32,000 nucleotides of DNA from Mycobacterium tuberculosis H37Rv (GCF_000195955.2 NC_000962.3:90001-122000), one strand, 5' to 3'; shown: positions 10,583-32,000, counted from the stretch's first letter. The notes: generated by a model not told the origin, from the letters alone. Numbers and translations are program-made.

Positions 10583-12868
10583 ATGACGACGGCCGTGACC
10601 GGTGAACACCACGCGAGTGTGCAGCGGATACAACTCAGAATCAGCGGGATGTCGTGCTCTGCGTGCGCCCACCGTGTGGAATCGACCCTCAACAAGCTGC
10701 CGGGGGTTCGGGCAGCTGTGAACTTCGGCACCCGGGTGGCAACCATCGACACCAGCGAGGCGGTCGACGCTGCCGCGCTGTGCCAGGCGGTCCGCCGCGC
10801 GGGCTATCAGGCCGATCTGTGCACGGATGACGGTCGGAGCGCGAGTGATCCGGACGCCGACCACGCTCGACAGCTGCTGATCCGGCTAGCGATCGCCGCC
10901 GTGCTGTTTGTGCCCGTGGCCGATCTGTCGGTGATGTTTGGGGTCGTGCCTGCCACGCGCTTCACCGGCTGGCAGTGGGTGCTAAGCGCGCTGGCACTGC
11001 CGGTCGTGACCTGGGCGGCGTGGCCGTTTCACCGCGTTGCGATGCGCAACGCCCGCCACCACGCCGCCTCCATGGAGACGCTAATCTCGGTCGGTATCAC
11101 GGCCGCCACGATCTGGTCGCTGTACACCGTCTTCGGCAATCACTCGCCCATCGAGCGCAGCGGCATATGGCAGGCGCTGCTGGGAAGCGATGCTATTTAT
11201 TTCGAGGTCGCGGCGGGTGTCACGGTGTTCGTGCTGGTGGGGCGGTATTTCGAGGCGCGCGCCAAGTCGCAGGCGGGCAGTGCGCTGAGAGCCTTGGCGG
11301 CGCTGAGCGCCAAGGAAGTAGCCGTCCTGCTACCGGATGGGTCGGAGATGGTCATCCCGGCCGACGAACTCAAAGAACAGCAGCGCTTCGTGGTGCGTCC
11401 AGGGCAGATAGTTGCCGCCGACGGCCTCGCCGTCGACGGGTCCGCTGCGGTCGACATGAGCGCGATGACCGGCGAGGCCAAACCGACCCGGGTGCGTCCG
11501 GGGGGGCAGGTCATCGGCGGCACCACAGTGCTTGACGGCCGGCTGATCGTGGAGGCGGCCGCGGTGGGCGCCGACACCCAGTTCGCCGGAATGGTCCGCC
11601 TCGTTGAGCAAGCGCAGGCGCAAAAGGCCGACGCACAGCGACTAGCCGACCGGATCTCCTCGGTGTTTGTTCCCGCTGTGTTGGTTATCGCGGCACTAAC
11701 CGCAGCCGGATGGCTAATCGCCGGGGGACAACCCGACCGTGCCGTCTCGGCCGCACTCGCCGTGCTTGTCATCGCCTGCCCGTGTGCCCTGGGGCTGGCG
11801 ACTCCGACCGCGATGATGGTGGCCTCTGGTCGCGGTGCCCAGCTCGGAATATTTCTGAAGGGCTACAAATCGTTGGAGGCCACCCGCGCGGTGGACACCG
11901 TCGTCTTCGACAAGACCGGCACCCTGACGACGGGCCGGCTGCAGGTCAGTGCGGTGACCGCGGCACCGGGCTGGGAGGCCGACCAGGTGCTCGCCTTGGC
12001 CGCGACCGTGGAAGCCGCGTCCGAGCACTCGGTGGCGCTCGCGATCGCCGCGGCAACGACTCGGCGAGACGCGGTCACCGACTTTCGCGCCATACCCGGC
12101 CGCGGCGTCAGCGGCACCGTGTCCGGGCGGGCGGTACGGGTGGGCAAACCGTCATGGATCGGGTCCTCGTCGTGCCACCCCAACATGCGCGCGGCCCGGC
12201 GCCACGCCGAATCGCTGGGTGAGACGGCCGTATTCGTCGAGGTCGACGGCGAACCATGCGGGGTCATCGCGGTCGCCGACGCCGTCAAGGACTCGGCGCG
12301 AGACGCCGTGGCCGCCCTGGCCGATCGTGGTCTGCGCACCATGCTGTTGACCGGTGACAATCCCGAATCGGCGGCGGCCGTGGCTACTCGCGTCGGCATC
12401 GACGAGGTGATCGCCGACATCCTGCCGGAAGGCAAGGTCGATGTCATCGAGCAGCTACGCGACCGCGGACATGTCGTCGCCATGGTCGGTGACGGCATCA
12501 ACGACGGACCCGCACTGGCCCGTGCCGATCTAGGCATGGCCATCGGGCGCGGCACGGACGTCGCGATCGGTGCCGCCGACATCATCTTGGTCCGCGACCA
12601 CCTCGACGTTGTACCCCTTGCGCTTGACCTGGCAAGGGCCACGATGCGCACCGTCAAACTCAACATGGTCTGGGCATTCGGATACAACATCGCCGCGATT
12701 CCCGTCGCCGCTGCCGGACTGCTCAACCCCCTGGTGGCCGGTGCGGCCATGGCGTTCTCATCGTTCTTCGTGGTCTCAAACAGCTTGCGGTTGCGCAAAT
12801 TTGGGCGATACCCGCTAGGCTGCGGAACCGTCGGTGGGCCACAAATGACCGCGCCGTCGTCCGCGTGA
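10583..12868 (+). CDS. ctpA: P1B-1-type Cu(I)-transporting ATPase (761 aa)
   Basis: SD GAGGAG (10572-10577) precedes ATG 10583. There is an N-terminal HMA domain with [12 protein letters not shown] (CxxC at 10655-10666). Other motifs: TGEAKP, TM6 CPC (11777-11785), DKTGT (11909-11923), [12 protein letters not shown]7 FGYN and TM8 MAFSS. Confidence 0.95.
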
Positions 12869-13663
12869 TGCGTTGTCGGGCAACACGATATCGGGCTCAG
12901 CGGCGACCGCATCCGGTCTCGGCCGAGGACCAGAGGCGCTTCGCCACACCATGATTGCCAGGACCGCGCCGATCACCACCGGCAGATGAGTCAAAATCCG
13001 CGTGGTGCTGACCGCGCCGGACAGCGCATCCACAATCACATAGCCGGTCAGTATGGCGACGAACGCCGTCAGAACACCGGCCAGGCCGGCGGCGGCGCTC
13101 GGCCATAGCGCCGCGCCCACCATGATCACACCGAGCGCAATCGACCACGACGTGGACTCGTTGAGCAAGTGGGTGCCGGCACCCGTCGGGTGCTGATGGG
13201 TCAGGCCGACGTCTAGGCCAAACCCCTGCACGGTGCCCAGGGCGATCTGCGCGATGCCCACGCACAGCAACGCCCAACGTCGCCAGGTCATCGGTGAATG
13301 TTGCCGCCGCGGCGCCCGGCGGATCCCGAGGCGCCCAACAGGCGGGACAACCGGGCGGGACTCGGCGAGCCGACGCAGATCACCAGCCTGGCTGGCCACC
13401 TGGGTAAACCATGCGCGACAGGCGCTGCACTCGCCCAGGTGTTCATCGACTCTCGCCGAGGGCACCGGTGCGCGCTCGCCGTCGAGTCGTGCCGACAGCG
13501 CTTCGCGCGCGACCTCGCAGTCCATGCCATCAATAGTCGCGCAATGCCGACGGATTGCTCCAGCGGGCTCGGACCACATCGCCGCGGGCACACCCCTGCA
13601 GCCTTGCAAAACGGTTGATGCGTGGTGGTTAAAGCTCCCGGCCGTTGTGGCTTGTGCGAGCAC
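12815..13663 (-). CDS. membrane-anchored zinc-finger (ZAS, zf-HC2) anti-sigma factor without an adjacent sigma gene (Rv0093c-like)
   Basis: The motif [15 protein letters not shown]...HLGECSAC gives C-x25-H-x3-C-x2-C, with HxxxCxxC at 13418-13441. About four TM helices follow. The longest ORF starts at GTG 13663 (282 aa). ATG 13525 (MDCEV...) would place the zinc finger at the extreme N-terminus, as in typical ZAS proteins. The 3' end overlaps ctpA by 54 nt. Confidence 0.8.
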
Positions 13664-13699
13664 GGTGGCCCGGGTGGTGCGTGAGCGCCGTGGGGCTCG

Positions 13700-29699: not shown

Positions 29700-29914
29700 A
29701 TGTGCAGATGATTTTGGAAGCGGTTGGCGTATCTGCCCGTGCTCGGCTACACCAGGACCGCGGGGCGCTGGCACGCGAACGATCCGGCGAGGAGGTGGGC
29801 CAGCCGGAGATTCCCTCCACAGGCTGCAGCAGAAGTCCTGGATCTGACCCCGACCTGAACCCTTGTCAGTGCGGTCCATCGACGGAAAATTGCTGTTCCG
29901 CCATGCTGGGCATG

Positions 29915-32000
29915 CTATTGAGCGCCAAAATTGCGTAGCCGCAAGCTGTTTGACACGACGAAAAATGACGAGAACGCCATGGCGGCACCGGCGATCAAAG
30001 GGTTGAGCAGTCCGGCGGCGGCAATCGGGATGGCTGCGACGTTGTACCCGAACGCCCAGATCATGTTCATCCGGATCGTCCGCATGGTTGCACGGGCCAG
30101 GTCCAGCGCCTGCGGAACAGTATTCAGATCATCGCGCACCAGAATGATGTCGGCTGCACCGAGCGCGACGTCGGTGCCACGCCCGATCGCCAACCCCAAG
30201 TCGGCACCCACCAACGCGGGACCGTCGTTGATGCCGTCACCGACCATGGCGACGGTATGTCCTTCCTCGCGGAGCCGTTGGATCACGTCGACCTTGCCTT
30301 CGGGCAGCATATCGGCGACAGCGGAGTCGATGCCGACCTGCGCCGCCACCGCGTCGGCGGCGGCCCGATTGTCGCCGGTGAGCAGAATCGTCCGCAGCCC
30401 GCGGCTGCGTAGCGCAGCGACGGCGGCAGCCGCTGAATCCTTGAGGGTGTCGGCGATTGTCAGGGCTGCGCGGACGACACCGTCGACCGACACAAAAACG
30501 ACAGTCTCGCCTCGGGATTCGCCGTCCAGGCGCGCGGACACCAGAGCCGCGTCGTGGCAGGGCGTGGTCCGGGTAATCCAGGATGGCTTGCCGACCTCAA
30601 CGTGATGGCCGCCGACTTCCCCCGATACACCGCAGCCCGCGACGGCGACAAACCCGTTGACTGGACCCGGATCCGGCGAAGCGGCAACGATGGCCGCCGC
30701 CATCGCATGCTCGGAAGCCGATTCGACAGCGGCGGCGAGGCCAAGCACTTCCTCGCGATCTCGCTCGCTGGTGCCTGAACCTGCCATTGTTACGGTGCTC
30801 ACCGCCAGCTGCCCAACCGTCAACGTGCCGGTCTTGTCGAACACCACGGTGTCGATGCTCCGGATGGTTTCCAGTGCCCGGTACCCCTTGATAAAGATCC
30901 CTAGCTGCGCTCCCCGTCCGGAAGCAACCATCATGGCGGTAGGTGTCGCGAGCCCAAGCGCACACGGGCACGCGATCACCAACACCCCTAGCGTGACCGA
31001 GAACGCGCGATCCGCGCCTGCGCCGCTGACGAGCCAGGCCGCACCTGCAAGTCCAGCAATGACGAAAACCACCGGCACGAACACGCCCGCGATGTGGTCG
31101 GCGAGGCGCTGGGCACGCGCCTTCTGCGTCTGGGCTTGCTCCACGAGGCGGACCATCGCGGCGAACTGGGTATCGGCCCCTACCGCGGTGGCCTCGATGA
31201 CCAGGCGGCCGTCCATCACGACCGTGCCCCCCACGACCGAGGCCGCCGGATAGGCACGGACCGGCTTGGCCTCACCGGTCATGGCGCTCATATCGATCGC
31301 CGCGCTGCCGTCGACAACGACTCCGTCAGCTGCGATGGTTTCCCCCGGCCGCGTCACGAAGCGCTGGCGCTTCTTGAGTTCGCTCGCCGGTATCACTAGC
31401 TCCGCGCCGTCGGGCAGCAGCACCGCCACATTCTTGGCGCCTAGCTCCGCCAGCGCACGCAGCGCGCTGCCGGCCTTGGACTTGGCTCGTGCTTCAAAGT
31501 AACGACCGGCAAGAACGAAGACGGTCACACCGGCCGCGACCTCGAGGTAGATCGAGTCGCTGTTGAGAATGGCCCGCCAGATTCCCGAGCCTTCCCGTGG
31601 CGGCTGATCGCCGAAGACGGACGAAAGCGACCAGGCGGTGGCGGCCACGATCCCGACCGAGATCAGCGTTTCCATGGATGTCGTCCGGTGGCGCGCGTTT
31701 CGCAGCGCGACCGAGTGGAAGGGCCATGCGGCCCAGGTCACAACCGGAGCGGCCAGGGCCGTCAATATGTATCCCCAGCCGGGAACCCTGGCGCTGGGGA
31801 CGATCGCGAACAACGTCGACAGGTCAGCCAGCGGCACGAACAACACCGCCGCGACTAGCAGCCGCCGCAGCAGTCTGCGGGCGTGGGCGCCGTCGGGATC
31901 CTTTGTCCGTTTGTCTAGGACGGTTGTCTCGGTGTGCGGTGCCGCGTGGTATCCGGCTTTCTCGACCACCCCGCACAGCTCATCGGCTGCCATGCCCACG
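29915..32000 (-). CDS. ctpB: P1B-1-type Cu(I)-transporting ATPase, paralogue of ctpA; N-terminus (HMA start) lies beyond the window end
   Basis: Stop TAG (reverse complement) at 29915-29917. Motifs: [39 protein letters not shown] and [16 protein letters not shown]. The ORF runs off the window; the visible start ...[16 protein letters not shown] is the tail of the HMA domain. Confidence 0.93.

Follow-up and report, generated by a model that had tools for sequence, protein, structure and literature searches.

The window analysed here is a 32,000-nucleotide (nt) stretch of the Mycobacterium tuberculosis H37Rv genome (NC_000962.3:90001-122000), corresponding by gene content and literature to the Rv0083-Rv0103c region. 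From position 10583 onwards it is bracketed by two P-type ATPase genes, ctpA and ctpB, in inverted orientation (Table 1). Between these pumps, Pfam searches recovered the genes that the initial annotation, made from the sequence alone, had placed there: a zf-HC2 anti-sigma factor gene (Rv0093c), a REP13E12 repeat with DUF222, the isonitrile lipopeptide operon ppe1-nrp and a gene encoding a Caa3_CtaG protein (Rv0102). As argued below, the block is probably a composite copper-supply island, in which two ancient paralogous copper modules and a chalkophore operon were joined, followed by gene loss. No sigma gene, CopZ gene, intact DUF5134 gene or second Rv0102 paralogue is present within the window.

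Table 1. Features of the copper block, in window positions (aa, amino acids; PWM, position weight matrix; NRPS, non-ribosomal peptide synthetase; ZAS, zinc-binding anti-sigma)
Feature	Position	Strand	Description	Basis
ctpA (Rv0092)	10583..12868	+	P1B-1 Cu(I) ATPase, 761 aa, HMA domain	Pfam, NCBIfam, motifs
Rv0093c	12815..13525	-	Candidate ZAS zinc-finger anti-sigma factor, four predicted membrane helices	zf-HC2
Relic SigC-type promoter of Rv0093c	13536..13561	-	GGAGC-N17-CGAC, -35 with one mismatch	PWM
REP13E12 element (Rv0094c/Rv0095c)	13710..14970	-		Pfam DUF222
SigC-type promoter of ppe1-nrp operon	15233..15258	+	GGAAC-N17-CGAC, 66 nt before ppe1 ATG	
ppe1 (Rv0096)	15324..16715	+	First chalkophore-operon gene; PPE and PPE-PPW domains	
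Rv0097, Rv0098, fadD10, Rv0100	16734..20019	+	TauD-type dioxygenase, FcoT thioesterase, acyl-AMP ligase, carrier protein	Pfam
nrp (Rv0101)	19977..27539	+	NRPS, terminal reductase	Condensation, AMP-binding, PP-binding, NAD_binding_4
Putative DUF5134 promoter/5' relic	27540..27672	-		DNA alignment with M. marinum, weak PWM matches
Rv0102	27714..29699	+	661-aa multi-pass membrane protein, C-terminal Caa3_CtaG	PF09678, 294 bits
ctpB (Rv0103c)	29915 to beyond 32000	-	SigC-dependent P1B-1 Cu(I) ATPase; 5' end and promoter outside window	

Expression was assessed from published RNA-seq (normalised counts, Supplementary file 3 of PMC12140626), using fold changes against the wild-type control and correlations on log counts. 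In the nrp mutant, PPE1 rises 42-, 167- and 63-fold (dimethyl sulfoxide (DMSO), Q203 and tetrathiomolybdate (TTM), respectively) and ctpB 5.7-, 13- and 8.5-fold, with r = 0.96 between the two. Flat expression is observed for ctpA (0.7-1.0-fold; r = 0.23 with PPE1), Rv0093c (0.6-0.8-fold; r = -0.05) and Rv0102 (0.9-1.7-fold; r = 0.52). The single functional unit initially proposed thus holds for ppe1-nrp and ctpB, and not for the other three: the block is two co-regulated transcription units plus three unresponsive genes.

The copper theme itself is not new: the literature already covers the SigC link, the role as chalkophore, Rv0102 and the paralogy of ctpA and ctpB. According to PMC7924339, SigC induction raises ctpB and ppe1-nrp, in line with the SigC link named in the initial annotation, and the sigC mutant grows poorly in low copper only. 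The same paper, citing Rodrigue 2007, is the source for SigC binding to near-identical promoters upstream of ctpB and ppe1-nrp. Genes and sigma factor are the same here, and the ppe1 promoter GGGAACTTT-N-CCGACTAAC (15233-15258) fits the -35/-10 elements reported before ppe1 and ctpB. As published, this regulon excludes ctpA, Rv0093c and Rv0102, with which the RNA-seq agrees; the wider module described below (sigma, CopZ, DUF5134, anti-sigma) is not described in the SigC regulon literature searched. The products of nrp are chalkophores, which bind copper and sustain the function of the bcc:aa3 oxidase (PMC9600254, PMC12140626), ctpB aids low-copper growth (PMC9147137) and Rv0102 homologues alter cellular copper content (PMC11413399). 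Together with the linkage of ATPase, CtaG-like and anti-sigma genes conserved across Mycobacterium, Mycolicibacterium and Gordonia, these publications uphold the theme of copper acquisition and delivery.

Five Pfam domain types characteristic of an isonitrile lipopeptide cluster follow each other in operon order at 16734-27539. The five-gene isonitrile lipopeptide cluster of Streptomyces and M. marinum resembles the M. tuberculosis chalkophore operon. All five enzyme types of the chalkophore system (PMC9600254, PMC12140626) are present in order, namely a TauD-type dioxygenase, an FcoT thioesterase, an acyl ligase, a carrier protein and a reductase-terminated NRPS. The M. tuberculosis nrp product has 2520 aa, compared to ~1400 aa in M. 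marinum and M. lepromatosis and ~1000 aa matched in fast-grower loci, and in slow growers a PPE gene heads the operon. Over ppe1 to fadD10 (15001-20000) the GC content is 0.61-0.64, versus 0.66-0.69 on both sides, a dip which may hint at a foreign origin of the isonitrile genes.

It is unlikely that this lipopeptide serves zinc and not copper, in a neighbourhood that is not devoted to a single metal. PMC8872721 reports diacyl-diisonitrile lipopeptides ('kupyaphores') as zinc metallophores, which does count against a copper-supply island. However, copper-specific phenotypes are described in PMC9600254 and PMC12140626, the sigC mutant is sensitive to copper limitation and not to zinc limitation, and the linked genes are all of copper type: P1B-1 ATPases, CopZ and DUF5134, a membrane protein with Met/His-rich stretches. 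Protection against copper excess by efflux or detoxification, in place of copper supply, would fit the classical view of P1B-1 ATPases as exporters. It would also fit the increased copper tolerance conferred by heterologous ctpA or ctpB, as summarised in PMC13460109, the summary of which also mentions Cu(I)-stimulated ATPase activity and transport. Such a role is nevertheless improbable, since ctpA and ctpB are not copper-induced, their knock-outs are not copper-sensitive and ctpV fills this role (PMC9147137, PMC13460109). In addition, ppe1 and ctpB rise under copper deprivation signals in the RNA-seq, and added copper rescues the growth defect of the sigC mutant (PMC7924339).

In their low-copper role, their lack of induction under copper excess and their genetic linkage to a membrane protein of the oxidase-assembly type, the two pumps are similar to the CopA2/CcoI (FixI)-type ATPases (PMC9147137). 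The latter serve proteobacterial cbb3 oxidases, whereas the presumed target here is the actinobacterial bcc:aa3 supercomplex, and the transport direction of CtpA and CtpB is likewise presumed.

Loci of relatives were taken from a genome-collection scan (among the loci listed, none from M. tuberculosis, M. marinum or M. leprae), and the loci of M. marinum, M. lepromatosis, M. riyadhense and M. attenuatum were added through protein look-ups. When these loci were searched by tblastn with the window proteins, a recurring layout was found, consisting of a divergent sigma gene followed by the ATPase, CopZ, a convergent Rv0102-like gene, DUF5134 and an Rv0093c-like gene. The sigma gene is divergent from the ATPase gene in at least ~18 loci, with the Rv0102-like, DUF5134 and Rv0093c-like genes downstream, and many genomes of Mycobacterium, Mycolicibacterium and Gordonia have the module intact. 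Sigma and Rv0093c-like genes co-occur in 16/16 loci of sufficient length (the sigma gene is intact in 15 and a pseudogene in M. lepromatosis). The module sigma passes the NCBIfam SigC equivalog just above the cut-off (252, 234 and 221 bits versus 219) and matches the M. tuberculosis SigC structures 2o7g and 2o8x.

With this linkage of ATPase, CtaG-like, DUF5134, anti-sigma and sigma genes in at least ~18 loci of three genera, under a shared promoter motif, a chance juxtaposition of unrelated genes into which a copper theme was read becomes very unlikely. The isonitrile genes adjoin the module also in the fast grower M. setense (L069, L015), and a CtaG-like gene adjoins the ATPase even in loci of Propionibacteriales and Microbacteriaceae. 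Chance would account for the REP13E12 element inside the block, for the gene order that varies by species and for the three genes that are not co-regulated. In two Mycobacterium loci (L085 1-9881 and L086 93-7299), a yersiniabactin-like NRPS set (TubC_N, Irp3-like reductase, thioesterases) and a MacB-type ATP-binding cassette exporter lie beside the Rv0093c/DUF5134/Rv0102 module; a different metallophore cluster may have docked there at the same regulatory module.

The shared motif is GGAAC-N17-CGAC, which is expected by chance 0.53 times per 32 kb and occurs in 3-8 copies in most full-module loci. It stands directly upstream of at least 22 ctpA-type ATPase genes, at least 13 DUF5134 genes and at least 12 Rv0093c homologues. 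In M. marinum it precedes ppe1, ctpA, ctpB (42 nt before the start), DUF5134 and Rv0093c; no exact copy was found ahead of ctpB in M. riyadhense, locus L001 or M. lepromatosis. Four species share a conserved stretch before ppe1 around GGGAAC-N17-CGAC, and the ppe1 promoter is kept in M. marinum, M. lepromatosis and M. attenuatum. Within the window this promoter is the sole exact match. A PWM built on 50 non-M. tuberculosis sites returned only two sites in the window, the ppe1 promoter with 29.8 bits and the Rv0093c site, located 10 nt ahead of an ATG inside the annotated ORF, with 26.1 bits, compared to 8.3 bits for the next unrelated site and 19.2 for the best shuffled score. No PWM site was found upstream of ctpA (10449-10585) or Rv0102, in agreement with their flat expression. 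Regarding the SigC regulon, ppe1-nrp hence shows motif and induction, ctpB is induced with its promoter outside the window, and ctpA and Rv0102 show neither.

In relatives, the motif is further found ahead of genes for PepSY_TM proteins, for HMA proteins of 120 aa and for a membrane protein of 155 aa that has an RWCC motif. Two of these motif-bearing families, neither present in the window, were observed at L003 8519-8983, L015 12076-12552, L027 12071-12523, L011 12152-13693 and L015 7673-9151: one is a membrane protein of 150-160 aa in which RVLEDVW and RRRFRWCC are conserved, the other a ~500-aa PepSY_TM protein, from a family that includes siderophore-linked reductases. What is new here is a conserved six-gene SigC-type module with a shared promoter motif, which on sequence grounds points to Rv0093c as a candidate anti-SigC factor.

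The two pumps are clearly paralogous, as initially noted, with 470/686 identical residues in BLASTP (69%; 79% positives; E = 0), and 8/8 of the peptides quoted at that time as near-identical stretches are present in both. The 68-69% identity and a duplication origin were already noted in PMC9147137. Both carry the P1B-1 Cu(I) signature, with the DKTGT site, CPC in membrane helix 4, GYN in helix 5 (the YN motif), MxxSS in helix 6 and GDGxND, read for ctpB in the part within the window. NCBIfam TIGR01511 (copper P1B ATPase) gives 508 and 485 bits for the two, versus a cut-off of 397. CtpA has an N-terminal HMA domain with GMSCSAC; the window does not include the N-terminus of CtpB, and the ctpB products of M. 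marinum and M. riyadhense have HMA domains. SEHS or SEHA is read in both pumps (ctpA residue 480; ctpB residue 429 of the window-encoded part), SEHP being usual in the nucleotide-binding domain of P1B ATPases.

At the DNA level, the codon alignment of ctpA and ctpB has 68% nucleotide identity, 46% identity at third positions, a synonymous divergence (dS) of 1.30, which is saturated, and a dN/dS of 0.19. The arms of the inverted repeat are 71-76% complementary in the coding regions only, and the downstream flanks of the two genes have no DNA similarity, so that the likeness ends at the gene ends. High DNA identity, low dS and flank similarity, as expected from a recent segmental inverted duplication, were thus not found. 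In a neighbour-joining tree (200 bootstraps) of sampled mycobacterial ATPase genes, ctpB of M. tuberculosis, M. marinum and a Mycobacterium metagenome-assembled genome form a 100% clade. This clade lies outside a 100% clade of every other sampled mycobacterial ctpA-type ATPase, from fast and slow growers, and root-to-tip lengths are equal for ctpB and the ctpA-type ATPases. Genes of ctpB type are found in M. riyadhense (L087 14975-17209, 83% identity) and M. attenuatum (L088 21670-21977, 96%, last 90 residues), so the distribution of ctpB is wider than the 'intracellular pathogens only' of PMC9147137.

The layouts of relatives indicate how the M. tuberculosis arrangement may have arisen. In M. 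marinum the order is ctpB, copZ, Rv0102 (reverse), DUF5134, sigma (reverse), ctpA, Rv0093c (reverse), methyltransferase and ppe1-nrp, with both pumps on one strand. M. lepromatosis has the M. tuberculosis gene order together with a sigma pseudogene beside ctpA and a DUF5134 remnant (48 aa) between nrp and Rv0102, and its layout and that of M. tuberculosis are one inversion apart from that of M. marinum. In M. riyadhense and M. attenuatum, DUF5134-Rv0102-copZ-ctpB directly follows Rv0090 and mtn and ctpA lies outside that locus; in M. attenuatum, ctpA and ppe1-nrp are on another contig than the ctpB module. The sigma pseudogene of M. lepromatosis is SigC-like and frameshifted (L083 13025-13751), next to an intact Rv0093c homologue.

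Traces of gene loss are also present in M. tuberculosis. The 27540-27672 interval aligns with the DUF5134-Rv0102 intergenic region of M. marinum, comprising the DUF5134 promoter and 5' end. The -35 GGGAAC is kept, the -10 CGAC has changed to CGGC, and weak PWM matches are found at 27637-27685. The alignment marks this interval as what is left of the promoter and initial codons of a DUF5134 gene that has been deleted. By tblastn, no coding remnant of CopZ/HMA or DUF5134 was found in the window. A GGGAAC...GTTCCC palindrome is also observed in this nrp-Rv0102 gap. The convergent ctpA and Rv0093c open reading frames (ORFs) overlap by 54 nt at their 3' ends (12815-12868), consistent with the loss by deletion of the genes lying between the two in other species, namely CopZ, Rv0102-like and DUF5134.

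Because of the layouts in relatives, the relic and the tree evidence, the inverted bracket is best read as a product of rearrangement and loss. The inverted duplication initially suggested is not supported. That a local inverted duplication of one ATPase gene made the bracket and helped to assemble the block is hardly credible: the pumps are indeed paralogous, inverted and ~17 kb apart, and a ctpA duplication is also proposed in PMC9147137, but besides the dS, third-position, flank and tree results, Rv0102 is duplicated too, the pumps are direct in M. marinum, and M. riyadhense and M. attenuatum carry the ctpB-Rv0102 module at a locus of its own. Distant ATPase lineages juxtaposed by chance had been named initially as grounds for rejecting the whole idea. 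Half of this was found, as old ATPase lineages appear to have been joined by rearrangement, yet they are related and their grouping is not due to chance.

The C-terminal 245 residues of Rv0102 match PF09678 (Caa3_CtaG) with 294 bits in Pfam. Of the initial 'CopD/CtaG-like' description, the Caa3_CtaG part is retained and the CopD part is not, since no Pfam family matches Rv0102 residues 1-380 at E <= 0.1; the 'CopD' label of some orthologues stems solely from source annotations. Judged by its sequence, Rv0102 is a domain-level relative of CtaG only. The PF09678 domain is common to Rv0102 and Bacillus CtaG, from which Rv0102 differs in its published phenotype, an altered copper content and not oxidase assembly (PMC11413399). 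In the neighbour-joining tree of Rv0102-type proteins, the ctpB-linked type, to which Rv0102 belongs, forms a 100% clade apart from the Rv0093c-linked type of M. attenuatum and locus L085, and M. attenuatum has both types. CtiP of Corynebacterium glutamicum is reportedly a CopD-CtaG fusion needed for aa3 oxidase biogenesis. A terminator and sigma-70 promoter scan of 27400-30100 was uninformative.

Rv0093c matches PF13490 (zf-HC2) with 37 bits (cut-off 22) and carries the ZAS motif as H29-x3-C33-x2-C36 (HxxxCxxC). Across its homologues, C3, H29, C33 and C36 are invariant, as is HLLNEST, which follows a His/Met-rich first loop. D166 is likewise invariant and H180 nearly so, both at outer helix ends on the inferred N-terminus-inside topology, and a ...DGSAA tail is nearly invariant at the C-terminus. 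The predicted structure has four membrane helices; with a mean predicted local distance difference test (pLDDT) of 62 and a predicted template modelling score (pTM) of 0.35, it is of low confidence and used for helix positions only. In 13/13 family genes examined, that of M. tuberculosis among them, 9-10 nt separate the -10 element from the start codon, which implies a leaderless mRNA. On this spacing, the true start of Rv0093c is probably the ATG at 13525 (236 aa) and not 13663 (282-aa ORF, 46 codons too early).

SigC is treated as having no anti-sigma factor in PMC7924339 and PMC8999054. According to PMC6917791, a 'putative rscA (anti-SigC)' lies one gene from sigC in M. marinum, without a copper link; this position matches the Rv0093c homologue, and the literature searched reports no binding experiment for rscA or Rv0093c. 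Rv0093c is not beside a sigma gene in the window, and in relatives it is linked to a SigC-like sigma gene as counted above; no sigma/anti-sigma fusion proteins were found among the 150 best representatives. In M. lepromatosis, decay has affected the adjacent sigma gene and spared the Rv0093c homologue. RslA, RsmA and RskA are membrane-bound zinc-finger anti-sigma factors of M. tuberculosis. Like Rv0093c, these and rscA have an N-terminal HxxxCxxC anti-sigma domain followed by a membrane anchor; compared to RslA, RsmA and RskA, Rv0093c differs in its four membrane helices, its invariant HLLNEST, its ...DGSAA tail and the absence of an adjacent sigma gene in M. tuberculosis.

Under the composite-island reading, the ancestral module would have comprised a SigC-like extracytoplasmic function (ECF) sigma factor, a P1B-1 Cu(I) ATPase, a CopZ-like chaperone, an Rv0102-like CtaG-domain protein, a Met/His-rich DUF5134 protein and an Rv0093c-like anti-sigma factor, with the ATPase, DUF5134 and anti-sigma genes under GGAAC-N17-CGAC promoters. 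M. tuberculosis would retain ctpA and Rv0093c from one module copy, and Rv0102 and ctpB from the other. In published experiments, SigC-RNA polymerase transcribes ppe1-nrp and ctpB at low copper, and the diisonitrile lipopeptide, as a copper chelator, maintains bcc:aa3 oxidase function. CtpB and a constitutive CtpA would pump cytoplasmic Cu(I) to the membrane's outer face, where Rv0102 would help to load it into the oxidase, and Rv0093c would keep a sigma factor of SigC type membrane-bound, to be set free by a copper-related signal. A more specific version, possible at best, makes Rv0093c the copper-responsive anti-sigma factor of SigC itself. H119, E123, D166, H180 and the His/Met-rich loop would then sense copper at the outer face, these four residues facing outward only on the inferred N-terminus-inside topology. 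As a protease tag, the cytoplasmic tail would bring about the release of SigC in copper scarcity, and the ancestral regulon would also have included DUF5134, the PepSY-type protein and extra HMA proteins, which M. tuberculosis has shed.

Several points weigh against the composite-island reading. M. tuberculosis SigC shares only 58-69% identity with each of the module-linked sigma factors, and its branch lies outside theirs, so the ancestral partner of Rv0093c may be a paralogue lost from M. tuberculosis, with SigC as an old paralogue and Rv0093c as an orphan. A simple relocation of sigC away from the locus was also considered, and is weakened by this same branching. Rv0093c remains flat while ppe1 rises 167-fold, despite a SigC-type motif with one mismatch. 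The trees are neighbour-joining trees in which deep nodes are weak. Rv0102 fails the NCBIfam CtaG equivalog TIGR02737 (34 bits versus a cut-off of 279) and is described in PMC11413399 as a copper uptake protein, not an oxidase assembly factor. For CtpB, import and directed export are both left possible by PMC9147137.

The REP13E12 element is an insertion and no part of the copper system. In M. marinum its position is occupied by an LCM-family methyltransferase gene, and Rv0094c (13710-14669) is near silent in the published RNA-seq (0-9 normalised counts), which its neighbours are not. Upstream of the copper block, Pfam identifies a hyc-type hydrogenase operon, a methyltransferase, a DUF2127 protein and mtn. 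The operon, at 247-6892 (+), encodes a membrane-bound hydrogenase or complex-I-like system (Proton_antipo_M, NADHdh, Complex1_30kDa and 49kDa, NiFeSe_Hases) that has no relation to the copper block.

Delivery of copper to the respiratory oxidase plays a part in the virulence of M. tuberculosis, and the chalkophore/SigC pathway is being actively studied. The comparative view explains the partial copper response of the block, in which the unresponsive genes would be remnants of a second module that have lost their promoter context. With ctpB-type genes in M. riyadhense and M. attenuatum, it also corrects the notion of a simple ctpA duplication limited to intracellular pathogens. Finally, Rv0093c and its conserved residues offer a concrete candidate for how copper deficiency may be sensed and for what may restrain SigC.

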